Shown: in pieces, positions 17,163 through 34,710 of the stretch
Layout of the letters: every line of letters begins with the position of its first letter
Position numbering within the stretch: the stretch's first letter is position 1
DNA from: a candidate division WS6 bacterium OLB20
Lineage (GTDB): Bacteria > Patescibacteriota > Dojkabacteria > B142 > OLB20
Direction: 5' to 3'
DNA: 41,336 nt
Assembly (NCBI GenBank): GCA_001567355.1
Contig: JYNZ01000003.1
Span: 136,655-177,990, forward strand
Position numbers and translations under genes: made by a program
Notes under the pieces: model-generated
What the model was told of the DNA's origin: nothing
Seen by the model: the letters and a program-made list of their open reading frames with translations, nothing else
The model's database searches: none

Positions 17163-18460
17163 AAGGAGCCGGTAATCAGAAGCATCTCGTCATCCTGAAG
17201 CTGCGCGACAGCCTGCAGCACAGCCTGGTTTACATCGGTGTACGACGTCCTCGTCACACCAGGTAAAATCTCATCGAAGATCAGGTCAAGTTCGGCAGCA
17301 GGCACAGATGACACGTACAGGTCCTGTGTTGCCGCAAAATCACACAGATAGACCGCCTGCAGACGGTCCTTAATTGTCGAAAGCTGGCGTACCGCATCTC
17401 TGGCACGGACTTTGTCTCTGCCTTTCTTAAATCCTGTCACAAGTCGGATTTTGACATCAGGATCAATCTCATCCAGGGTCCGGACCAGTGCGGCCATCTT
17501 ATCTGCATTATGAGCAACATCGGTAATTACCAGAGGATCTTCTGAGAAGATCTGGATACGGCCGTTAAGCCTGGTATCTTGAAGGGCTAAAGCTGCATGA
17601 TCGGGGTTAAACCTGTCCCCGAGAAACTCGGCAGCAGCTGTGAGCGCTACTGCAGCATTTTCAGCCTGATGCCTGCCATGCTGTCGCAGCGTAACTTGCA
17701 CCTGGCGGTCTTTAGTGTAGGTAAACACTGTCCCCGCCCTGTTTACAGTAATATCGGACGCAGTAAAGTCTCTGCCTGTGCGCAGCAGTGTTGCATTCAT
17801 TCTGACAGCGTGATCTTCAATGACGCGAAGGACAGAACTGCTGGTTACACCTGTAACCATTGTACGGCTGGGCTTAAGGATCTGCACTTTATCAGCTGCG
17901 ATCTCTTCGACAGTGTTACCCAGAAACTCCTGATGGTCCAGTCCGACCGAAGTGAGGACAGCGACCTCTGCATCAATAATGTTTGTAGGATCAAGCTTCC
18001 CACCCATTCCGACCTCCAGGACTACCGCATCAAGGTGGCGTCTGGCAAACAGAACAAATGCCATTGCCAGTACAAATTCAAAATAGATCAGTGTGACACC
18101 GGTTTTGTCCGTAAAATAGTTATCATGTGCTGCCGCCACTTCGTCAAACACAGCAGTAAATTCTTCTTCACTGACTGGTTCACCATCGATGCAGATACGT
18201 TCCCTGACCGAAAAAATATGAGGAGAAAAGAATGATCCCGTTTTAAGACCGTGTGAACTTAGAATCTGTTGCGTGTATGCTGTTGTTGATCCTTTTCCGG
18301 ATGTGCCGGCAATATGGACAAACCGGAGTGAATCATGAGGACTGCCAAGGTATTTCATGAATCCCAGAAACCTGTCCAGCGTGTAGTTTTCAATCCAGAT
18401 CGACTTCTGGGTGTAGGCCTCAAGTCGCTTCTCGGTCTCAATGAATTCGTTGTTTTGCAT
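17105..18460 (-). CDS. folC: Folylpolyglutamate synthase / dihydrofolate synthase
   Basis: HIAGTSGKGST, SPH, ERI, EVGMGGKLDPTN, GLDHQEFLGNT, DVAHN and ITGSFYL. Confidence 0.95.
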   Translation of the reverse strand: MQNNEFIETEKRLEAYTQKSIWIENYTLDRFLGFMKYLGSPHDSLRFVHIAGTSGKGSTTAYTQQILSSHGLKTGSFFSPHIFSVRERICIDGEPVSEEEFTAVFDEVAAAHDNYFTDKTGVTLIYFEFVLAMAFVLFARRHLDAVVLEVGMGGKLDPTNIIDAEVAVLTSVGLDHQEFLGNTVEEIAADKVQILKPSRTMVTGVTSSSVLRVIEDHAVRMNATLLRTGRDFTASDITVNRAGTVFTYTKDRQVQVTLRQHGRHQAENAAVALTAAAEFLGDRFNPDHAALALQDTRLNGRIQIFSEDPLVITDVAHNADKMAALVRTLDEIDPDVKIRLVTGFKKGRDKVRARDAVRQLSTIKDRLQAVYLCDFAATQDLYVSSVPAAELDLIFDEILPGVTRTSYTDVNQAVLQAVAQLQDDEMLLITGSFYLLGLLDTASLRSALEAM

Positions 18461-18548
18461 ACCTTATACTGATATATTTTGTAAAGACTTCGCTCGGCAT
18501 CCGTTTCAGAACTATAACAAAAAGTTTTACCTTAACCTACACGTGCTT

Positions 18549-20492
18549 ATGCATTCAACAGAAATTCGCAAGCGGTTCTTTGACTTTATGATTTCACCGC
18601 CACGTAATCATACCGAGATTGAAAACGTCTCACTGGTTCCGGTCAACGACCCGACAATTCTTTTTACTAATTCAGGAATGTTCCCGCTGGTGCCGTACCT
18701 GCTTGGAGAGGAGCACCCGCTCGGAACCCGGCTGTGCAACTTTCAGCGCTGCCTGCGTACATCTCTTGAAGAAATTGAAGAGATCGGCGACAACAGACAT
18801 ACACTGATGTTTGAAATGATGGGCAACTGGTCCCTGGGTGACTATTTTAAAGAAACCCAGATCAAGAACGTACTGAAACTCTACGTTAAGGAATTCGGAC
18901 TTGATCCCAACAGGATCTATGTGACGGTGTTTGCCGGCGACGATGATGCACCGCGCGACGATGAATCGATTAAATACTGGAAGGAAGCCTTTGCTGAATA
19001 TGGTGTTGATGCGGAATTCACTGAAGATATCTACAATATTCCGTCACTTGAAAACTTTGACAAGGAGCACAAGTTCCGTATCTTTCCCTATCCCAAGAAG
19101 AAAAACTGGTGGCAGCGCGGTAATGCTGTCGGTGAGCTCGGCGGACCTGACACAGAAATATTTTACGACCGTGGTGTCGTCGAAGTGCCGGAACCGGACG
19201 GAAAGGATCACGTAAACTCTGACAGCGGAAGGTTTATCGAAGTAGGAAACAGTGTTTTCATTCAGTACCGGCTCAATGAGCAGTTACAGTGGGAGGAGAT
19301 AGAACAGAAGAATGTCGACTTCGGCGGCGGATTTGAGCGGGTTGTCATGCTTGCCCAGAACAAGGATGACATTTTTGAAACAGACCTGTTTGAAGAAATC
19401 CTCAGCGAACTGGAGAGCATCACCGGCTTCGGCTACAAAGAGACAGAAGGCCTAAGCGAGGAGGAGCAGAAAAAGGTCACCCGCAGTTTCAGGATCATTG
19501 CAGACCACATCCGCGGCTCTGTCTTTATCCTGGGAGATGGCGTAAAGCCTGCCAATAAGGATCAGGGATACATTCTTCGCAGTCTCATCAGGCGGATGGT
19601 CAGGCGTGCCAGGATGATCGACCTGACTGCAAACTTTACAGCACGCATGGCACAGATTGTGATCAACAAATACAGGGAGTACTACCCGCAGCTGGGTGAG
19701 AATGAGGCAATGATCACGGACGAGATAGAAAAAGAAGAAATACGATTCAGCAGCACACTCGAAAAAGGACTGAAGGAGCTGCAGAAGTTTACCGGAATGG
19801 GTATCAAGATTGACGGCAAAACCGCGTTTTTCATCTATGAAACATATGGTTTCCCGATCGAAATGATCATAGAAGAGATAAAATCATCTTCTGTCAATGA
19901 TCCCGGGGATCTGACAGAGGCTGATGTAGAGCGTATAACGGCAGATTTCAAGGCCGAGCAGGATAAACACAGAGAAGAAAGCCGAGCAGGTGCAGAACAG
20001 AAGTTTAAGGGTGGACTGGCTGACCACAGCCGTGAAACGACCATGTTACACACTGCTCATCACATTCTGCTCGCTGCTTTGCAGAGTGTGCTTGGTAAGC
20101 ATGTTAAGCAGCGTGGCAGCAACATTACCGGTGAACGTCTGCGAATTGATATTTCACACAGTGATAAAATTACTGCTGCTGAAATTGCCGAAGTTGAGGA
20201 GATCGTGAACAAGGTAATCAGTGAGGGGTACACAGTCGAAAAAAAGACCATGCCCAAAGCAAAGGCTGAGGAGATTGGGGCAGAGATGGAATTCGGTCAG
20301 AAATATGGCGACCTGGTCAATGTGTACTTTATCAAAAACCCGCAAACCGGCGAGATCTTTTCTGCTGAGTTCTGCGGTGGCCCGCATGTCGACAACACAG
20401 GTGAGCTTGCCGGCATGGGTACTTTTAAGATATTGAAAGAACAGAGTAACGGTTCGGGCGTGCGCAGGATCAAGGCAACACTCGTTACATGA
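18549..20492 (+). CDS. alaS: Alanyl-tRNA synthetase, short form with editing domain but no C-Ala domain
   Basis: DPTILFTNSGM, FEMMGNWSLGDYFK, GGPDTEIF, DFGGGFER, IIADHIR, editing motifs HTAHH and EFCGGPHV, ending at GVRRIKATLVT. ATG at 18549. Confidence 0.96.
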   Translation: MHSTEIRKRFFDFMISPPRNHTEIENVSLVPVNDPTILFTNSGMFPLVPYLLGEEHPLGTRLCNFQRCLRTSLEEIEEIGDNRHTLMFEMMGNWSLGDYFKETQIKNVLKLYVKEFGLDPNRIYVTVFAGDDDAPRDDESIKYWKEAFAEYGVDAEFTEDIYNIPSLENFDKEHKFRIFPYPKKKNWWQRGNAVGELGGPDTEIFYDRGVVEVPEPDGKDHVNSDSGRFIEVGNSVFIQYRLNEQLQWEEIEQKNVDFGGGFERVVMLAQNKDDIFETDLFEEILSELESITGFGYKETEGLSEEEQKKVTRSFRIIADHIRGSVFILGDGVKPANKDQGYILRSLIRRMVRRARMIDLTANFTARMAQIVINKYREYYPQLGENEAMITDEIEKEEIRFSSTLEKGLKELQKFTGMGIKIDGKTAFFIYETYGFPIEMIIEEIKSSSVNDPGDLTEADVERITADFKAEQDKHREESRAGAEQKFKGGLADHSRETTMLHTAHHILLAALQSVLGKHVKQRGSNITGERLRIDISHSDKITAAEIAEVEEIVNKVISEGYTVEKKTMPKAKAEEIGAEMEFGQKYGDLVNVYFIKNPQTGEIFSAEFCGGPHVDNTGELAGMGTFKILKEQSNGSGVRRIKATLVT

Positions 20493-26699: not shown

Positions 26700-27338
26700 A
26701 TGAGTTCATACTTAATTCCCACAGTTATCGAAAAGAGCAGAGATGGTGAGCGTGCATACGACATCTATTCACGCCTGCTTAAGGACAGGATAATCTTCCT
26801 GGGCACCGGCATCGACGACCAGGTCGCCAACGCGGTCATTGCCCAGCTTCTATTTCTGGAGAAAGAGGACCAGGAGAAGGACATAACCATGTACATCAAT
26901 TCTCCCGGGGGCGTAATATACTCGGGACTGGCGATTCTCGATACGATGTCATATATAAAGCCCGATGTCAGAACGGTTGCAATCGGGACTGCAGCCTCAT
27001 TCGGCACAGTCATACTGTCCGCAGGAGCTAAAGGAAAGCGCTTTGCGCTGCCAAATACCATGGTGCACATGCATCAGCCTCTGGTCTCGGGAGGCATTGG
27101 CGGACAGGCAAGCGATATTGAAATCGAAGCAAGGGAGATCCTGCGTCTCAAGGAACTGCTGACCAATATCCTTGCAGAAAATACCGGACAGACTCATGAC
27201 CAGATTACAAAAGACTCGGACCGGGACAAACACATGACAGCAGACGAAGCATTGAAGTACGGACTGATTGATAAGATCATCAAAAACGGGACGAATCAGG
27301 TGACTGATTGCAGTCTGAGGCGGTACCTACTACAATGA
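26700..27338 (+). CDS. clpP: ATP-dependent Clp protease proteolytic subunit
   Basis: [30 protein letters not shown] (catalytic Ser), HQP and DRD. The C-terminal tail may be altered by an A-run error. Confidence 0.97.
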
Positions 27339-27381: not shown

Positions 27382-27966
27382 ATGAGCAAATATGTCTCAT
27401 CCGGCGCAATGAAAAAGATTGCGCTTGTCTCAGGTGCCCTCGCTCTGGTTAACGGCCTTATCGGCCTTGCCGTTGCACTGGTACCTCCACTTGCCTTCCT
27501 GGCATGCTTTATTACACCGCTGCTTTGTCTGGTCGGACTCGGAATCCCGGCCTGGGCAGCATATGTGGCTGTCAAAGAGAACGGCTTCACCAAGGACCAG
27601 ATCACTGACGGTCTGCTTTCAGGAGCACTTGCCGGAGCAGTATCAGGTGCAGTTACCGGTACTGTTGGAGCAGTATTCGGCATCATTAACACACTGGCTG
27701 GCGGCGCAAGCAGCGCAGCACTGACTTCTCTTGGAGGTTTTGACACGCCAGCAACTGACGTTGCAGTGTCAACCGGCGCCGGAGTTGTTGGATCGATTAT
27801 CTGCGCACCTGTTGGAATCATCGTTGCTATTCTGATTGCAGCAGTTATCGGAGCAGTCGCAGGCCTCTTGATCGCAGCCATGACCGAGAAGGCAGGCGCA
27901 AAACCTGCAATGGCAAGCAAGCCTGCAGAGCCAGTAGAAGCAAAAAAGGAAGAAGAGACCAAGTAA
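27382..27966 (+). CDS. Hypothetical Gly/Ala-rich integral membrane protein
   Basis: 194 aa, about four hydrophobic helices and a charged tail; followed by a terminator. Confidence 0.8.
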   Translation: MSKYVSSGAMKKIALVSGALALVNGLIGLAVALVPPLAFLACFITPLLCLVGLGIPAWAAYVAVKENGFTKDQITDGLLSGALAGAVSGAVTGTVGAVFGIINTLAGGASSAALTSLGGFDTPATDVAVSTGAGVVGSIICAPVGIIVAILIAAVIGAVAGLLIAAMTEKAGAKPAMASKPAEPVEAKKEEETK

Positions 27967-27985: not shown

Positions 27986-28016
27986 ACAGTCCCGCTCAAA
28001 GCGGGACTGTTTGTTT
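27986..28016 (+). terminator. Intrinsic terminator
   Basis: ACAGTCCCGCT-CAA-AGCGGGACTGT followed by TTGTTT. Confidence 0.85.
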
Positions 28017-28098: not shown

Positions 28099-28175
28099 GG
28101 GTAGTTAGCTCAACTGGTTAGAGCATTCGCTTGACGTGCGAAAGGTTATAGGTTCGAGTCCTATACTACCCACCA
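28099..28175 (+). tRNA. tRNA-Val (GAC)
   Basis: Acceptor stem GGGTAGT/ACTACCC, D arm AGCTCAACTGGTTAGAGC, anticodon arm TTCGC-TTGACGT-GCGAA, T arm ATAGGTTCGAGTCCTAT, encoded A-CCA end. Confidence 0.97.
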
Positions 28176-28264: not shown

Positions 28265-30013
28265 ATGAACGAACAACAGTTACAAGCTCTTGAAACGATG
28301 CGACACAGTTTTGCGCATGTACTTGCGCAGGCGGTATTGCGTCTCTATCCTGGCTCAAAGCTCGGCATAGGCCCGGTTATTGAAGAAGGCTTTTACTACG
28401 ACATTGAGGCTCCCTCACGCATCAGTGCAGACGATCTGCCACAGATAGAAGCAGAAATGAAGCGGATCATTGACGAAGGTCTTGTGTTCAAGCAGATCAT
28501 CATTCCGCGCGAACAGGCGTTTGACACCCTGCACCACCTCGGCCAGATCTATAAGACAGAGCTGCTGCAACAGATTCCTGACGAGACCATCAGTTTTTAC
28601 AAAACAGGTGAAGAATTTATTGACCTGTGCCGGGGTCCGCACGTGCACGACACATCACAGCTCAGGGTGTTCAAACTGACAAGCATAGAGACTTCGTACT
28701 GGCTCGGTGACGAAAACCGGCCCGAGATGCAGCGTATTATCGGGGTGGCATTCAGCCATGCCGCTGAACTGGAAAAGTACCTGAAGGACCAGGAGGACAG
28801 GAAACTCCGGGACCATCGTATTCTGGGCAGGCAGCTCGGGATATTTCATCTTGACCAGACACAGGGTAAAGGCATGCCCATGCTGCTCCATAATGGCGTT
28901 ATGCTGAAACAGAGCCTTGCCAGCATGCTGAAAAACAGAATGATCGATCAGGATTACGAATTTATCGAGAGTCCCGAATTTATTAAAGAGAGCACGCTGC
29001 ATGCGGTGAGATATCTTGACTACAACCGGGACGTATTCATGCCACAGTTTCAGCTGGAAAACAACATGCACCGTCTTCGGACAGATGCTGTCAGCCAGCT
29101 TTTTTCTGCATTCAGTTACAAAAAGAGAAGCTACAAGGAGCTGCCGCTTCGACTGAGTGAATTTGCAGCATCATACGCAAACATACCGGTTAAAGATCTG
29201 CACGGATTGTTTAAGACACGAAGGTTTACCAGAGACAACAGCGTCAGCTTTACAGCTGCTGATCAGGCGATCCCTGAGGTCAAACGCATCATAAAAGAGA
29301 TGACATCCCTGCTGCAGCAGTTTGAACTGAACGACTACCGTATTGCCCTTGGCACCCCTGTACAGGGAGCTAACGGGCAGCACTATATCGGAAACGAACA
29401 GGACTGGCGGGATGCGTCCTATATTCTTGAAAAGGCCCTGTCTGAGATGCACATCACAAGCCGCAAGACTGAAGGCGAGGCTGCTTTTTACGGCCCCACA
29501 CTGCAGTTCCGGGTCAGAGACGTATTCAGACGTGAATGGACGATTGCCTCAGTCGGAATCGATCTTGCACTGCCCAAAATTGCCAACCTCACCTTTGTGA
29601 CTGCGGAGGGCAATGATGACACACCGGTCGCTATTCATCACAGCTTTATCGGCTCATTTGAGCGATTCCTCGGCATTCTGACCGAGGAGTACGGTGGCGC
29701 GTTTCCGACATGGCTTGCACCAGAGCAGGTACGCATTATCCCGATTTCAGCCAAGCACACATCACACGCCAAGGAAGTAGCAGAACAACTGCGTCACAGC
29801 GGTATCCGCGTATTTCTCGATGCACGTGATGAGACAATGCAACTGAAAATCAGAGATGCGCAGATCGATCGCATTCCCTACATGCTGATAATCGGGGATA
29901 AAGAGATCCAGACAGGATCTGTCTCAGTCAGACCCCGCAGCGGTCAGGACCTTGGTCTGATGCGCACTGACGAATTTGCAGCCCTCATATTTAAAGACAG
30001 ACCCGGTGCCTAG
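28265..30013 (+). CDS. thrS: Threonyl-tRNA synthetase homolog with degenerate aminoacylation site; editing and anticodon-binding domains intact; no TGS domain
   Basis: RHSFAH, GFYYD, DLCRGPHV, RDHR.LG, SYKELPLR, AFYGP, GSFERF, PTWLAPEQV and KIR..Q..RIPY. Catalytic motifs are substituted (see findings). The track ORF extends spuriously into the tRNA; ATG at 28265. Confidence 0.9.
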   Translation: MNEQQLQALETMRHSFAHVLAQAVLRLYPGSKLGIGPVIEEGFYYDIEAPSRISADDLPQIEAEMKRIIDEGLVFKQIIIPREQAFDTLHHLGQIYKTELLQQIPDETISFYKTGEEFIDLCRGPHVHDTSQLRVFKLTSIETSYWLGDENRPEMQRIIGVAFSHAAELEKYLKDQEDRKLRDHRILGRQLGIFHLDQTQGKGMPMLLHNGVMLKQSLASMLKNRMIDQDYEFIESPEFIKESTLHAVRYLDYNRDVFMPQFQLENNMHRLRTDAVSQLFSAFSYKKRSYKELPLRLSEFAASYANIPVKDLHGLFKTRRFTRDNSVSFTAADQAIPEVKRIIKEMTSLLQQFELNDYRIALGTPVQGANGQHYIGNEQDWRDASYILEKALSEMHITSRKTEGEAAFYGPTLQFRVRDVFRREWTIASVGIDLALPKIANLTFVTAEGNDDTPVAIHHSFIGSFERFLGILTEEYGGAFPTWLAPEQVRIIPISAKHTSHAKEVAEQLRHSGIRVFLDARDETMQLKIRDAQIDRIPYMLIIGDKEIQTGSVSVRPRSGQDLGLMRTDEFAALIFKDRPGA

Positions 30014-30110
30014 CATAAAATGATTGAATTATCCTGCACTTTCTGCTATTATCAACACTCGTATAGGTTAATTGTTACCAGCTTTCGCAATATACAAGGG
30101 TAGAAACAGC

Positions 30111-30665
30111 ATGAAATACATGAAGCGCGAAGAAGTGCGCTATGCCAGAAATGAATTCATTAAGGCACCCAGATTACTTGTAATTGATGCGGATGGTACA
30201 CAATTAGGCGAGATCGATACCGAAAAGGCACTTGCAATCGCCAGAGAGCGTGAACTTGACCTGATTGAGGTTGCTCCAAATGCAAATCCTCCGGTAGCCA
30301 AGATATATGACTGGTCAAAGTTTAAGTACCAGCAGGACAAAAAGCGCAAGGAGAACAAGAGTAAATCGATCGAACAGAAGGAGATGTGGTTCAAGTCGTT
30401 TATCGACACGGGCGACATGCTCCATAAGATCAAAAAGGTAAAAGAGTTTCTTGAAAAAAAGCATCCGGTCAAAATTACCATCCGTGGTAAGGGCAGGGTG
30501 ACACGTGACCACATGTATCAGGTGATGGACGAGATACTCGCCGAACTGGAAGGTTACATTAAATACGACGGACGTCCAAAACTGAGCGGGCGCAACATGA
30601 GCCTGATCGTACGTCCCGACATTAATAAAAAGACAAATGAAAAAGAACAAGATCAAAACACATAA
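30111..30665 (+). CDS. infC: Translation initiation factor IF-3
   Basis: NEFIKAPRLLVID..G.QLG, LDLIEVAPNANPPVAKI, VKITIRGKGR. The start is uncertain. Confidence 0.95.
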   Translation: MKYMKREEVRYARNEFIKAPRLLVIDADGTQLGEIDTEKALAIARERELDLIEVAPNANPPVAKIYDWSKFKYQQDKKRKENKSKSIEQKEMWFKSFIDTGDMLHKIKKVKEFLEKKHPVKITIRGKGRVTRDHMYQVMDEILAELEGYIKYDGRPKLSGRNMSLIVRPDINKKTNEKEQDQNT

Positions 30666-30840
30666 GGCTTCGAAGAAGCGTTTTAAACTGACTGCCACTG
30701 GTAAGGTTATGCACTACAAGCAGGGCAACAACCATCTTAAGGCTAACAAGAGTGGCGCACAGAAAAAACGCAGAAGCGGTGATACAGAGCTTGGCAGCAA
30801 AACCCAGGCAAAGAAGATTATTAATTTGATGAACGAATAA
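30637..30840 (+). CDS. rpmI: 50S ribosomal protein L35
   Basis: KIKTHKASKKRFKLTATGKV; synteny between infC and rplT. Confidence 0.95.
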   Translation: MKKNKIKTHKASKKRFKLTATGKVMHYKQGNNHLKANKSGAQKKRRSGDTELGSKTQAKKIINLMNE

Positions 30841-30841
30841 G

Positions 30842-31183
30842 ATGAGAGTCAAACGGGGTATTACAAAAAAACGAAAACATAAAAAGGTACTTGAGCAGAC
30901 AAAAGGTTTCCGCCTGAGTTACAGCAAGCTTTACCGCCGCGCACGCGAGGCGCTGCTGCATGCAAAACAGTACTCATACGGTCACCGCAGAAAGCGCCAG
31001 GGACAGTTTCGCCGTCTCTGGATTGAGCGTATCAATGCCGGTCTTACAGAAAGCGAAATGAAGTACAGCACATTCATTCACAATCTGAAGACAAAGAACA
31101 TCGAACTCAACCGTAAAATTCTGGCAGATCTTGCGCTTAACCACACCAGTGTGTTTGCAGAGGTCGTAAAGTCAGCAAAGTAA
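30842..31183 (+). CDS. rplT: 50S ribosomal protein L20
   Basis: MRVKRG, FRRLWIERINA and LNRKILADLA. Confidence 0.97.
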   Translation: MRVKRGITKKRKHKKVLEQTKGFRLSYSKLYRRAREALLHAKQYSYGHRRKRQGQFRRLWIERINAGLTESEMKYSTFIHNLKTKNIELNRKILADLALNHTSVFAEVVKSAK

Positions 31184-31213: not shown

Positions 31214-32263
31214 ATGGCTACAGCCAAGCCAGACACGCAAAAGCTGCTGACCGAGCTTGACGACCTGCTTCTTAAAGCAAAGGCGAACATCGCCAGCACC
31301 GATTCCGAAGAAGAACTTGACCAGGAGCGCGTACGCTACACCGGTCGCAAATCAGAACTCACCACAATCCTGAGAGGGATTAAGGACCTTTCGGATGACG
31401 GTAAAAAAGAGGTCGGAGCCCGTGCAAATGAAGTCAAAGAAAAGGTTCTTGAACTTGTTGAGAAACAGAGCATGGTGCTTCGCAAAAAGTCAGTGGAGCG
31501 TGCGAGCAAAGAGGAAGAGCTAGATGTAACTCTGCCCGGTAACAAGATCCCGCAGGGACGAAGACACATTATCTCCCAGATGCAGGAGCGGACAGAAGAA
31601 ATATTCCAGCGCATGGGCTTTGACGTGGTATACCCCTACGAAATTGATACAGACTTCAATAACTTTCAGGCTGTAAATATTCCCGAAGGTCATCCTGCCC
31701 GCGACAGCTGGGATACATTCTGGACCGAAGACGGTCAGATTGCAATCACACATACATCTGCCATGCAGAACAGGGTTCTGCGTTCGCATGAGCCACCGAT
31801 CAGGGTGGTTGTGCCAGGCAGGACGTTTCGTCATGAGGCTACGGATGCCCGCCATGAACATACGTTTTTCCAGGTCGAGGGAGTTTACGTGGATAAAGGC
31901 GTGACGTTTGCTGATATGCTCGGAACGCTGCAGACATTCTTCTCCGAATTTTTCGGTCAGAAGATAGGCATCAAGTTCTCGCCTGACTTCTTTCCGTTTG
32001 TCGAACCGGGAGGCATGATCTCAATCGATGTGTCCGGACTGGGAGATTCCTTCATGGAGATATCAAAAGGTACCGGCTGGCTCGAAATTCTTGGTTGCGG
32101 CATGATCCATCCGCGTGTACTTGAGATGGGTGGGATTGATCCCAATGTTTACAGCGGTTTTGCCTGGGGATTTGGCCTTGAACGTGTGGTCATGCCAAAA
32201 TTTGCGATCGAAGATATCCGCCTGATCTACAAGGGTGATTTGGATTTTGTTAGACAATTCTGA
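31214..32263 (+). CDS. pheS: Phenylalanyl-tRNA synthetase alpha subunit
   Basis: HPARDSWDTF, THTS, DARHEHTFFQVEG, FPFVEP, WLEILGCGMIHP and GFAWGFGLER. Confidence 0.97.
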   Translation: MATAKPDTQKLLTELDDLLLKAKANIASTDSEEELDQERVRYTGRKSELTTILRGIKDLSDDGKKEVGARANEVKEKVLELVEKQSMVLRKKSVERASKEEELDVTLPGNKIPQGRRHIISQMQERTEEIFQRMGFDVVYPYEIDTDFNNFQAVNIPEGHPARDSWDTFWTEDGQIAITHTSAMQNRVLRSHEPPIRVVVPGRTFRHEATDARHEHTFFQVEGVYVDKGVTFADMLGTLQTFFSEFFGQKIGIKFSPDFFPFVEPGGMISIDVSGLGDSFMEISKGTGWLEILGCGMIHPRVLEMGGIDPNVYSGFAWGFGLERVVMPKFAIEDIRLIYKGDLDFVRQF

Positions 32264-34710
32264 TGCTGTTATCATTTTCATGGCTTCAGACGTATCTGCC
32301 GGACCTGCATACGTTTGACCACAAAACAATTGCCGAGGCTCTCACCGGCTCACTTGCTGAGGTTGAGGGCATCACTGGTGTCAGAAAAGGTCTGAAGAAC
32401 ATCTCAGCTGGCGAAGTTATCAGCGTTGAACCTCACCCCACACACAAAAAACTTTCTGTCTGTGCAGTAAAACTGGCAAACAGTGAACGGACAATCATCT
32501 GCGGAGCACCTAATGTTGCAGCCGGAATGATTGTCGCCGTATGTCTGCCCGGCGGGAGCGTTCTCAACCCCAAACAGCCCCTGGGTTCACAGGATGTGTT
32601 TATGATTGAACAGCGCCAGATAGGAGAGGTAACATCAGAAGGTATGATCTGCTCTGCCAAGGAGCTTGGTCTGTCTGAATCTCACGATGGCATCCTTGAG
32701 CTTGAGCCCGAGATGATCCCAGGTACAGATCTCGTTCCGATGCTGCAGGATACAGTATTTGAGATTGAAAACAAGTCAATCAGTCACAGGCCGGACTGCT
32801 TCTCCCACAGGGGGATAGCGCGCGAGCTGTCTGCAATCCTCAACACAGAATTTCAGGAGACACCATCTGATGTATCTCTGATCCCTACAGCCAATCTTCC
32901 GCTTGCTGTTGACCGCAAGGTCAGCGCGGAGCTCTGCAGCAGATTTAACGCTGTAACCGTGACAGAGGTTACGGTAAAACAGTCACCGCTCTGGCTGGTA
33001 GCCAGACTTGCAGCGGTTGGCATTCGAAGCGTCAACAATGTTGTTGATATCACTAACTTTGTCATGATGGACATCGGTCAGCCGCTGCATGCGTTTGACT
33101 ATGACAAACTAGCCGATGCCGAACTTACAGTCAGAAATGCAAAGCAGGGTGAGAGTATTAAAGCGCTCGACGGATCCACCTACAAACTCAGCAAAGACAT
33201 GGTCATCATCGCCGACGGCGCAGGAAAACCTGAGAGTATCGCAGGTATCATGGGAGGAGCCCGGACCGAAATCACTGAAAAAACAACAAATATCGTTCTT
33301 GAAGCCGCAAACTGGGAGATGTATAACATACGGCGCAGCTCGCGTGAGCTTGGACTGCGGACAGAAGCGAGCACACGATTTGAAAAAGGCCAGGATCCAA
33401 ACCTGACAATGGATGGGCTCAAAGATGCCCTTGCACTTGTACAGGACGTTGCCGGAGGCGAACTTGCCTGCGAGCCCGTTGATATCTATCCCGAACCTGT
33501 TACTGAGCATACTGTCGAACTTCCTGTTCCCATGGTCAAGCGCTTTCTTGGTATTGACCTTAAAACCGATGCGGTAATTGAACTGCTGGAAGCACTTGGT
33601 CTTGAACACCTCGAAGAAGAAAGCTCTGCCGAGAATATCGAAAAGGATTCACAGATATTTCGCATACCCACATGGCGTGGTGATCTGAAGATTGCACAGG
33701 ATCTGCTTGAAGAGGTAGCCCGGATGTACGGGTACGATGCAATTGTCCCGACCTTACCTGAGGGATCACTAGAGCCGGTTGCGCGCAACCCTGTGTCAGT
33801 CGTCAACCGGATTATCCGTGACAGTCTCACCGGCTCAGGACTAGACGAGCTGATCACGTATAGTTTTACAGGAGAAGATGACTACAAGCGGATCCGTCTT
33901 GACCACACAAAGGCACTGGCGCTCAGCAACCCGATCTCTCCTGATTTGCGCCTGCTTAGAACAACGTTACTGACAAACTTGACTGCCAAGCTTTTGAGAA
34001 TGCCAAGCGACACAGCGTATTCCGCTTTTTTGAACTCGGACGCGTTATCCAGAAGGAGACCGATGATAGCGGTATCCATCTGCAGCCGCGAAAGGTGGCC
34101 GGTCTGCTGGCCGATGAGTCGGCTTCCGAGCTGTTTTTTTGATGCAAAAGGCGTGATTGAGGTCCTGCTGAAGGATCTGCACATCGATACTGATGCAGTC
34201 CGTTTTGTCCCTCTTGCTGAGGAGCCCGGTGCAGGTGCAAGCGCAGCATTCCATCCGGTAAGAACAGCTGTAGTTTATATCGGCGAAGAACGGCTGGGAA
34301 TCGTCGGCGAACTTCATCCGGAAATACTACTGACAGAAGACTACGACGGCAGGATCAGCGCATTTGAACTTGACGCAGACCTGCTCCTCAAGCATTACAA
34401 CGAATATGCCACCTACACAAGAATCTCGGAATTTCAGGCTGTCTCGCGCGACCTGAGCTTCTGGGTCGCCAGATCGGTTCTGTATACTGATTTTGTCGGT
34501 GCTATTCATGCACTCAACAATCCACTGGTAAAGAATGTCGAGCTTGTCGATGTGTTTATGCCAGCAGGAGAAGAGAAGCGCAAGGGCATCACTGTCAGTA
34601 TCACACTGCAAAGTATGGAACGAACACTTAGTGAAGAGGATATCAATTCCGCCGTTGAGACGGTGTCTCATGCACTTAAATCTGCAGTAAAGGCAGAGCT
34701 GCGCTCATAA
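32263..34710 (+). CDS. pheT: Phenylalanyl-tRNA synthetase beta subunit, with an internal pair of compensating frameshifts
   Basis: ICGAPNV, SEGMICSAKELG, RPDCFSHRGIARE, NNVVDITN, GQPLHAFD, EASTRFEKG, DLLEEVARMYGY and RDLSF. Confidence 0.96.
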   Translation: MLLSFSWLQTYLPDLHTFDHKTIAEALTGSLAEVEGITGVRKGLKNISAGEVISVEPHPTHKKLSVCAVKLANSERTIICGAPNVAAGMIVAVCLPGGSVLNPKQPLGSQDVFMIEQRQIGEVTSEGMICSAKELGLSESHDGILELEPEMIPGTDLVPMLQDTVFEIENKSISHRPDCFSHRGIARELSAILNTEFQETPSDVSLIPTANLPLAVDRKVSAELCSRFNAVTVTEVTVKQSPLWLVARLAAVGIRSVNNVVDITNFVMMDIGQPLHAFDYDKLADAELTVRNAKQGESIKALDGSTYKLSKDMVIIADGAGKPESIAGIMGGARTEITEKTTNIVLEAANWEMYNIRRSSRELGLRTEASTRFEKGQDPNLTMDGLKDALALVQDVAGGELACEPVDIYPEPVTEHTVELPVPMVKRFLGIDLKTDAVIELLEALGLEHLEEESSAENIEKDSQIFRIPTWRGDLKIAQDLLEEVARMYGYDAIVPTLPEGSLEPVARNPVSVVNRIIRDSLTGSGLDELITYSFTGEDDYKRIRLDHTKALALSNPISPDLRLLRTTLLTNLTAKLLRMPSDTAYSAFLNSDALSRRRPMIAVSICSRERWPVCWPMSRLPSCFFDAKGVIEVLLKDLHIDTDAVRFVPLAEEPGAGASAAFHPVRTAVVYIGEERLGIVGELHPEILLTEDYDGRISAFELDADLLLKHYNEYATYTRISEFQAVSRDLSFWVARSVLYTDFVGAIHALNNPLVKNVELVDVFMPAGEEKRKGITVSITLQSMERTLSEEDINSAVETVSHALKSAVKAELRS

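Follow-up and report, generated by a model that had tools for sequence, protein, structure and literature searches.

What becomes of a threonyl-tRNA synthetase (ThrRS) gene that stays at its native locus while its synthetic active site is lost? The question is raised by a thrS-like gene in a 41,336-nt stretch of DNA from the candidate division WS6 bacterium OLB20 (contig JYNZ01000003.1, positions 136,655 to 177,990; hereafter the window, whose own numbering is used below). The gene encodes P0001, a protein that an earlier note on this DNA had taken for a catalytically dead ThrRS with intact editing and anticodon-binding domains. We propose that P0001 is probably a trans-editing deacylase specific for tRNA(Thr), genetically fixed in this role and derived from a ThrRS scaffold. 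On balance, we also favor the view that the gene for P0001 is the thrS originally present at the native locus and that aminoacylation has been taken over by another ThrRS lineage, represented by P0002 and encoded at a different place in the genome. The deacylase activity of P0001, its substrate and its oligomeric state are inferred. The gene and its domains are:

28265-30013, plus strand: thrS-like coding sequence (P0001, 582 amino acids plus stop), a degenerate ThrRS and, by synteny and trees, the positional orthologue of ancestral thrS
28265-28774, plus strand: N2 editing domain, residues 1-170 (Pfam tRNA_SAD; residue map)
28862-29698, plus strand: class II catalytic core, residues 200-478 (Pfam tRNA-synt_2b; AlphaFold2 and Foldseek), predicted fold kept, active site scrambled
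29717-29989, plus strand: anticodon-binding domain, residues 485-575 (Pfam HGTP_anticodon, PF03129, 76.5 bits)

Pfam assigned P0001 a tRNA_SAD (N2 editing), a tRNA-synt_2b (class II core) and an HGTP anticodon domain and found no TGS/N1 domain in it. The reading frame contains neither stops nor frameshifts, and the protein scores above the cut-off of the NCBIfam thrS equivalog model TIGR00418 (503.2 bits; cut-off 383.65). ATG 28265 is a credible start because the longer open reading frame (ORF) from GTG 28136, which was rejected as spurious, runs through tRNA-Val(GAC) at 28099-28175; orthologues of P0001 begin level with the same ATG.

P0001 was aligned with HMMER to the ThrRS proteins of Escherichia coli (1qf6_A, E = 1.3e-105) and Staphylococcus aureus (1nyq_A, E = 3.6e-119), both alignments being gap-free through the active-site motifs; E. 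coli residue numbers are taken from the 1qf6 alignment, in which E. coli IHRAILGSMERF pairs with P0001 IHHSFIGSFERF. Motif by motif, KPMNCP is replaced by RTDAVS, HRNE by YANI, FTQDDAH by FTRDNSV, TGHW by VRYL, FYGPK by FYGPT and WQCGTVQLD by WTIASVGID. Relative to E. coli ThrRS, the losses are C334V, R363A, E365I, D383N, H385V, K465T and Q484G, and they fall at the following sites:

29084-29092, plus strand: D274-A275-V276 in place of M332-N333-C334; zinc-ligand Cys lost (V276 = 29090-29092)
29177-29185, plus strand: motif 2, A305-N306-I307 in place of R363-N364-E365; Arg lost (A305 = 29177-29179)
29231-29245, plus strand: R323-D-N325-S-V327 in place of Q381-D-D383-A-H385; D383 and the second zinc ligand lost (N325 = 29237-29239 for D383; V327 = 29243-29245 for H385)
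29489-29557, plus strand: Y409 (= Y462) kept; T412 in place of K465; T426, I427, S429 and G431 in place of Q479, C480, T482 and Q484
29636-29665, plus strand: motif 3 region; H458 (= H511), S464 (= S517) and R467 (= R520) kept

The zinc ligands Cys334, His385 and His511 thus correspond to V276, V327 and H458, one of three being kept, and of the class II Arg/Glu set R363 and E365 have become A305 and I307, leaving only the motif-3 Arg, R520 (= R467). We take R363 to be the ATP-binding Arg of motif 2, D383 to contact the Thr hydroxyl, and E365, K465, Q484 and the motif-3 R520 to be catalytic. Every substitution named in the earlier note was found at its codon by the HMMER alignment and the codon map, and the gap-free alignment and open frame agree with its view that these are substitutions rather than a frameshift artefact. 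By all indications P0001 cannot be an ordinary ThrRS, because two of the three zinc ligands and the motif-2 Arg are gone; the active-site zinc of ThrRS has a role in Thr recognition (PMC4787780). Twelve catalytic positions do not vary among the tabulated canonical copies, and P0001 keeps 3 of them, compared with 8 of 8 editing-site positions. For a wider list (catalytic 4 of 15 kept, editing 8 of 8), a Fisher test gave p = 0.0013, a value that is illustrative only, the positions having been chosen by hand.

The editing site is complete. The HxxxH motif is intact at H14/H18 (= H73/H77; 28304-28318) and the CxGxH motif at C122-R-G-P-H126 (= C182/H186; 28628-28642), and G36 (= G95), Y45 (= Y104), K97 (= K156), D120 (= D180) and Y112 (= Y173) are also kept; the domain scores 46.3 bits against Pfam PF07973. 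The N2 site therefore looks as normal in the alignment and residue map as it had to the earlier reader, and so does the anticodon-binding domain, which is conserved about as well as that of canonical ThrRS. H73, H77, G95, Y104, K156, D180, C182 and H186 are identical in all 22 degenerate copies described below, across which the 18 tabulated N2 positions are essentially fixed. K156, D180 and Y104 are editing-site residues; a literature search for the role of Y104 gave nothing. P0001 falls below the cut-offs of models for free-standing editors, namely the crenarchaeal Ser-tRNA(Thr) hydrolase NF011500 (66.2 bits, through the anticodon domain only; cut-off 362) and the AlaX-type NF040865 (25.5 bits; cut-off 300). 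His73, Gly95 and Cys182 are invariant substrate contacts of the N2 site (PMC7302879), and HxxxH, CxGxH and Y173 mark the ThrRS N2-type editing site (PMC12003907).

The earlier note had listed the lack of any other thrS in a complete genome, together with measurable Thr activation, among the outcomes that would refute its proposal, and had called for a search for a second gene with intact Cys/His/His ligands. Such a gene is present in the same genome (G000; 1.46 Mb in 7 contigs, 95% complete), on contig C2 and unlinked to the gene for P0001. Its 590-residue product, P0002, is the only further protein of the genome to score above the TIGR00418 cut-off (644.5 bits), and its catalytic motifs are canonical (RPMTCPHH, YRYE, LADAHI, FYGPK and HRSSIGAIER). 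The accompanying expectation that the partner would lack editing failed: the N2 domain of P0002 is intact (HSAAH, DLCRGGH), with HxxxH, G95, K156, D180 and CxGxH all present, and its editing pocket differs only at the E. coli Y104 position and at one loop residue. Tyr occupies the Y104 position in 22 of 22 degenerate copies and in all 8 native copies that are intact; just 2 of the 14 partner copies have it, and the others have Phe, Ser, His, Gln, Met or Asn instead. This pattern hints that the editing pocket of the partner lineage is drifting. Partner cores are divergent between genomes in a check of pairwise identity.

The closest homologues of P0001, whose nearest orthologue is only 63% identical, are labelled Candidatus Dojkabacteria, a lineage of the candidate phyla radiation (CPR)/Patescibacteria. 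We compared 40 relatives of the same class together with G000, 41 genomes in all, and tabulated 5 editing-site and 15 catalytic-site columns. Canonical copies all read M-C-R-E-x-D-H-Y-K-x-T-Q-H-x-R at the 15 catalytic columns, and the canonical ThrRS proteins of the class and of other phyla are invariant where P0001 is substituted. The degenerate copies keep the editing pentad HHDCH, and their catalytic columns are replaced differently by genus (DVAIRNV, DISVRST, EFTTSSF, DSQQRSH, LSKSDQI and others). An altered native-lineage copy occurs in 25 of the 41 genomes, all 25 of which also hold a copy with canonical residues (partial or split in three, G006, G029 and G023); none of the 41 has a degenerate copy only. 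Within the window gene's own family, 15 of 16 genomes, including G000, carry a degenerate copy (two of them partial at contig ends), and the sixteenth, G004, is too fragmented to read.

The extent of the change differs between families. The catalytic site is scrambled in families f1, f10 and f13; in the three readable genomes of family f4 the zinc ligands are lost and R363 and E365 kept; and in the three genomes of family f2 only C334T and D383T/A are found. The native copies of family f5 include that of G034, in which the editing site is lost (SFDGG) and the catalytic site intact, and a relic in G024 in which neither site survives, the editing columns reading THDAV and the catalytic ones being scrambled, with its frame open and its place at clpP-x-infC retained; these two copies are L056 and L059, respectively. 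The f2 copies (L011, L014 and L015 of G016, G019 and G021) lie at the native locus in genomes that each have a second, canonical ThrRS, and their minimal form may reflect either degeneration that has only begun or a change in amino-acid specificity. In f4, the degenerate copy is immediately preceded by a canonical ThrRS, giving the order canonical-relic-infC (L019/L048 in G018; L024/L055 in G022; L018/L067 in G023; L050 in G020), and the canonical copy of G023 reads in two frames.

Each degenerate copy with a readable flank lies in the order clpP-x-infC-rpmI-rplT-pheS, and single-copy genomes have an intact thrS at the same clpP-infC place. The 16 scrambled copies group as a single clade (SH-aLRT branch support 99) in a tree of full-length sequences (61 rows, quick IQ-TREE), beside the f4 and f2 forms and the intact native copies. 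Because scrambled cores invite long-branch artefacts, a second tree was built from the N2 and anticodon columns only (267 columns, 66 rows including 6 outgroups); partial copies under 500 amino acids were left out of both trees, and G032_L066 (515 amino acids, very long branch) was left out of the second tree and of the conservation set. In the second tree, a native-locus group of 31 rows (support 82; core of 24 rows, support 96) contains all degenerate copies and the intact single copies, and a partner clade of 23 rows (support 100) contains the canonical partners, including P0002. The native catalytic site is altered in 21 of the 23 genomes with a partner-clade copy, intact in one (G034) and unreadable in one (G020); in the eight genomes without the partner clade (G017, G025, G026, G028, G031, G035, G037 and G039) the native copy is intact. 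P0002 groups with the G034/G024/G039 copies in the full-length tree and with the G003 partner (support 100) in the second, the identity to the latter being 71% in N2 and 45% in the core, which suggests domain mosaicism in the partner lineage.

Conservation was compared by domain in 22 degenerate and 22 canonical copies, a column being counted as conserved when its top residue reached a frequency of at least 0.9. The N2 domain has 63 conserved columns in degenerate and 39 in canonical copies (of 170), the catalytic core 7 versus 51 (of 279) and the anticodon domain 18 versus 20 (of 91); the seven core columns look like structural Gly, Pro and Trp. In the 12 genomes with both copies at full length (66 genome pairs, which are non-independent), mean identity was 0.62 for relics versus 0.56 for partners in N2, with the relic higher in 50 of 66 pairs, 0.27 versus 0.48 in the core and 0.48 versus 0.57 in the anticodon domain. 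The selective loss that the earlier note had proposed to look for in relatives is indeed common to them: all 22 degenerate copies have the same editing residues, and core conservation is nearly all gone. Degeneration is, to all appearances, a family trait and not an accident.

Selection was estimated from raw codon counts and maximum-likelihood (ML) values. The dead cores of G005 and G009 differ by 31 synonymous-only and 5 amino-acid-changing codons (nonsynonymous-to-synonymous rate ratio, omega, ∼0.04) and those of G008 and G010 by 116 and 30 (ML omega ∼0.02, with synonymous divergence, dS, saturated); in the latter pair, purifying selection on the dead core is no weaker than in the canonical partners. 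For the G000 and G003 relics dS is saturated and omega not estimable, and identity is 56% in the core, 73% in N2 and 70% in the anticodon domain. All three domains are under purifying selection. The domain-wise check that the earlier note had set against simple decay found the dead domain under such selection (omega ∼0.02-0.04 in the close pairs), and because of this we regard the P0001 lineage as not decaying. Between G005 and G009 (L046/L043 versus L047/L044), relic dS is ∼0.13 and canonical partner dS ∼0.81, a gap that suggests a recent exchange at one or the other locus.

The AlphaFold2 (AF2) model of P0001, made from a 79-row alignment, predicts an intact ThrRS fold, with a predicted local distance difference test score (pLDDT) of 93.3 and a predicted template modeling score (pTM) of 0.82; this was the structural check proposed beforehand. 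Foldseek superimposed the model on 1qf6_A, from the E. coli ThrRS-tRNA complex, with a template modeling (TM) score of 0.88 and a root mean square deviation (rmsd) of 3.2 Å over 574 columns; taken together without N2, its core and anticodon domain fit E. coli structures with an rmsd of 1.3-1.6 Å. A heterodimer model of P0002 (residues 179-590) with P0001 (residues 181-582) scored 0.88, and the best of three controls 0.00. Among solved complexes, 58 of 80 attain that mark, as do 2 of 110 mismatched pairs; these calibration counts hold only roughly here, because the heterodimer was modeled from custom-made alignments. The heterodimer runs agree in at least 97% of contacts, with partner pLDDT at least 88. 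The model supports binding between P0001 and P0002 but is no proof of it; it may pass by likeness to solved ThrRS dimers, and hetero- and homodimers are indistinguishable by it.

The features around the gene are:

26700-27338, plus strand: clpP (Pfam), whose conserved upstream position marks the native thrS locus in this class
27986-28010, plus strand: strong intrinsic-terminator-like hairpin of 11 pairs followed by a T run, closing the upstream membrane-protein gene and forming the 5′ boundary of the unit
28099-28175, plus strand: tRNA-Val(GAC) (ARAGORN; Rfam RF00005, 71.9 bits), 89 nt upstream of the thrS-like start
30111-30665, plus strand: infC, encoding IF-3 (Pfam); the ORF list also permits a TTG start at 30072
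30637-30840, plus strand: rpmI, L35 (Pfam)
30842-31183, plus strand: rplT, L20 (Pfam)
31214-32263, plus strand: pheS (Pfam)
32263-34710, plus strand: pheT (Pfam)

The order thrS-infC-rpmI-rplT-pheS-pheT, which the earlier note had recognized as the canonical locus, is borne out by Pfam, and clpP and a DUF192 gene lie upstream (Pfam). A terminator scan found no terminator-like site between the thrS-like stop and infC. In an Rfam scan of the window nothing but tRNA reached the gathering threshold, and no operator-like element was sought beyond that scan. A few contigs of 151-465 nt with 100% identity occur in four sequencing runs from two studies; they are probably DNA and carry no information on expression. 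Between clpP and tRNA-Val, 27382-27966 (plus strand) encodes a 194-residue Gly/Ala-rich predicted membrane protein without a Pfam match, homologues of which are found at the corresponding position in the three nearest of the genomes examined (among them G003 and G002).

A trans-editing P0001 could work as follows. As in a normal ThrRS, tRNA(Thr) would be bound through the anticodon-binding domain and the class II core, whose fold is predicted to persist; without a competing synthetic pocket, the aminoacylated CCA end would enter the intact N2 site (HxxxH/CxGxH, K156, D180, G95), where Ser-tRNA(Thr) released by the active ThrRS would be hydrolyzed. By sequence, P0001 lacks the synthetic-site residues, and an active-type ThrRS is present in the same genome. 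Editing of Ala-tRNA(Thr) was considered and rejected: the three tRNA(Thr) genes (CGU, GGU and UGU) have ordinary acceptor stems and U73, with no G:U pair suggesting mischarging by alanyl-tRNA synthetase (AlaRS). In the published cis-editing model, the anticodon domain holds tRNA(Thr) while the CCA end shifts from the synthetic site to N2 (PMC11295145).

The closest parallel comes from Anabaena, which, like G000, has two ThrRS genes per cell (Rubio et al. 2015; PMC4787780). Anabaena T1 with all three zinc ligands replaced has no synthetic activity and wild-type Ser-tRNA(Thr) deacylation, suppresses the Ser mischarging of T2 in trans and heterodimerizes with T2. It is because P0001 looks like the natural equivalent of this mutant that we read it as a trans-editing deacylase. 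Apo-T1 likewise has no synthetic activity, keeps N2 deacylation, edits Ser-tRNA(Thr) in trans and can heterodimerize with the active paralogue, and P0001 would be a comparable subunit. There are two differences: the Anabaena switch is conditional on zinc loss, metallated T1 being fully competent, whereas the Dojkabacteria loss is gene-encoded and family-wide; and the active Anabaena partner, T2, is editing-impaired, whereas P0002 keeps its editing motifs (PMC4787780).

We consider it probable that P0001 is a bacterial analogue of both Anabaena apo-T1 and the crenarchaeal protein ThrRS-ed. Crenarchaea reportedly have a catalytic ThrRS and a separate protein with editing and anticodon-binding domains (ThrRS-ed), in work attributed to Korencic (2004) and Shimizu (2009), and the likeness to P0001 lies in this division of labor. 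P0001 differs in keeping a full-length class II core and in having a partner that is not editing-less. In addition, the archaeal editing domain is DTD-like (PMC11295145), and P0001 has N2. Like the canonical enzymes of E. coli (1qf6) and S. aureus (1nyq), P0001 has the N2-core-anticodon architecture and fold (TM 0.87-0.89, 33-35% identity) and is encoded at the thrS-infC locus, but it lacks N1/TGS, as do the other class copies examined, and its synthetic site is destroyed. With free-standing editors of the AlaX type it would share the HxxxH/CxGxH module and action in trans (PMC12003907), along with the N2 fold, but these are small one- or two-domain proteins with neither an anticodon-binding domain nor a class II core. 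A literature search that covered few subscription papers found no description of a bacterial ThrRS that is catalytically dead with its editing site intact, and none of CPR ThrRS paralogues. Trans-editing by a ThrRS-derived protein is known; the bacterial N2 base, the full-length dead core and an ancestral gene rather than a duplicate as the source would be new.

Several observations weigh against this proposal. P0002 keeps the full editing motif set, which makes a separate editor look redundant and its cost hard to justify in a 1.46-Mb genome. The G034 native copy has lost its editing residues instead, and that of G024 has lost both sites; a ThrRS relic that persists without an editing site hints at some role other than hydrolysis. 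Within lineages, the dead core is constrained like a live one, beyond the obvious need of a passive scaffold. In addition, the AF2 alignment held many canonical ThrRS sequences, so that the predicted intact fold is partly borrowed from them, and the genome counts come from relatives and hence do not represent independent events.

These points bear on the alternatives in different ways. The relic might be an obligate subunit of a fixed asymmetric heterodimer with P0002, giving editing, stability or both, which we consider possible although improbable; it overlaps with trans-editing, quaternary state being the sole difference. The heterodimer score of 0.88 against 0.00 for the controls is in line with it, as are the nearly invariant motif-1 Pro (P237), the Y104-position split between relics and partners, which is compatible with a partial division of labor, and the behavior of the Anabaena T1 zinc-ligand mutant, which loses homodimerization yet copurifies with T2 (PMC4787780). 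However, ThrRS homodimers are solved structures, a likeness that the model's pass may reflect; the interface-bearing core is only 27% identical on average between genera; and the two genes are unlinked in G000, although tandem in G018, G022 and G023. Of similarly modest probability is a wider scheme in which a newly arrived lineage B charges tRNA(Thr) and ancestral lineage A has become the editing-only subunit of an A-B heterodimer, a fixed two-gene division of labor in Dojkabacteria. The differing converted forms (f1/f10/f13, f2 and f4) may record several conversions after the arrival of B. If true, this division would offer a natural series of stages from essential synthetase to pseudoenzyme proofreader, with the pocket of B starting to drift (Y104).

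Noncatalytic RNA binding, in which the relic regulates the infC-rpmI-rplT operon or the active thrS, or sequesters or chaperones tRNA(Thr), with hydrolysis irrelevant, seems to us unlikely. E. coli ThrRS binds its operator in the mRNA leader, the anticodon-binding domain of the relics is conserved, and the gene comes first in a translation operon, followed by infC without an intervening terminator; the G024 relic, without editing and synthetic residues, is also retained at the same locus. Such a role, however, leaves unexplained why N2 is the best-conserved domain, with catalytic residues invariant in 22 of 22 copies, and the Rfam scan at its gathering threshold, beyond which no operator-like element was sought, gave tRNA only. 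Paralogues of aminoacyl-tRNA synthetases with new roles, of the HisZ, AsnA and EpmA types, are a precedent for a remodeled class II core that binds a new ligand or catalyzes a new reaction, and within lineages the core is held by purifying selection (omega 0.02-0.04) as tightly as that of a live ThrRS. We nevertheless give this little credence, since the pocket residues vary between genera (DVAIRNV, DISVRST, EFTTSSF, DSQQRSH and others), the 7 of 279 core columns that are conserved are apparently structural Gly, Pro and Trp, and the motif-2 Arg for ATP binding is absent. Least probable of all is that P0001 is either a still-active ThrRS with an unorthodox site or a functionless, decaying pseudogene. 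Activity would fit the TIGR00418 score and the name "threonine--tRNA ligase" that public annotation gives to relatives, but not the loss of two zinc ligands, R363, E365, D383 and K465; decay would fit the long branch and the scrambled site, but not the open frame, the retention in 15 of 16 family genomes (the sixteenth unreadable) or an omega far below 1.

Pseudo-synthetases with a known job are few. If trans-editing is the role of P0001, the protein would be the bacterial N2-type counterpart of archaeal ThrRS-ed and the evolutionary end-point of the conditional Anabaena state, and its retention in an ultra-reduced CPR genome would imply that Ser/Thr fidelity is worth 1.75 kb to an amino-acid-importing cell. 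The graded forms across families offer a natural series for the displacement and repurposing of an essential enzyme. The relics also set an annotation trap: they score above the cut-off of the thrS equivalog model and carry the name "threonine--tRNA ligase", with the result that a dead enzyme is taken for a live one in marker-based estimates of completeness and in metabolic calls.

When 1.84 billion representatives were searched with a profile built from 12 relics, the best 150 matches included 147 new proteins. Among these, 88 are canonical at every one of the 16 positions checked. Another 20 retain all 7 editing residues but differ in the catalytic set, the changes reaching six or more of the 9 catalytic positions in 13 of them; and 12 have editing changes only, 9 have both kinds and 18 have gaps at checked positions. 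Two of the database representatives, P0211 and P0256, are N1-bearing ThrRS-like proteins of ∼630 amino acids with scrambled catalytic residues, and the named proteins closest to P0211 (49% identity) are ThrRS of Clostridia with canonical residues. Similar relics may therefore exist outside the CPR. A related-locus search with P0211 gave 17 loci, mostly from Clostridia, in which 13 of 13 full-length ThrRS proteins are canonical.

Other proofreading modules were seen in G000, and its lineage appears to invest heavily in them. Two class IIb (Asp/Asn/Lys-type) synthetase-like frames, C2:187226-189046 and C3:69798-71882, are fused to YbaK/ProX-type tRNA_edit domains, C-terminal in one and N-terminal in the other, and a DTD homologue lies at C3:67828-68250. 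In the window itself, an AlaRS-like frame at 18417-20489 (plus strand), ∼690 codons from stop to stop, ends in a tRNA_SAD editing domain; it is shorter than a typical bacterial AlaRS and apparently lacks the C-terminal domain.

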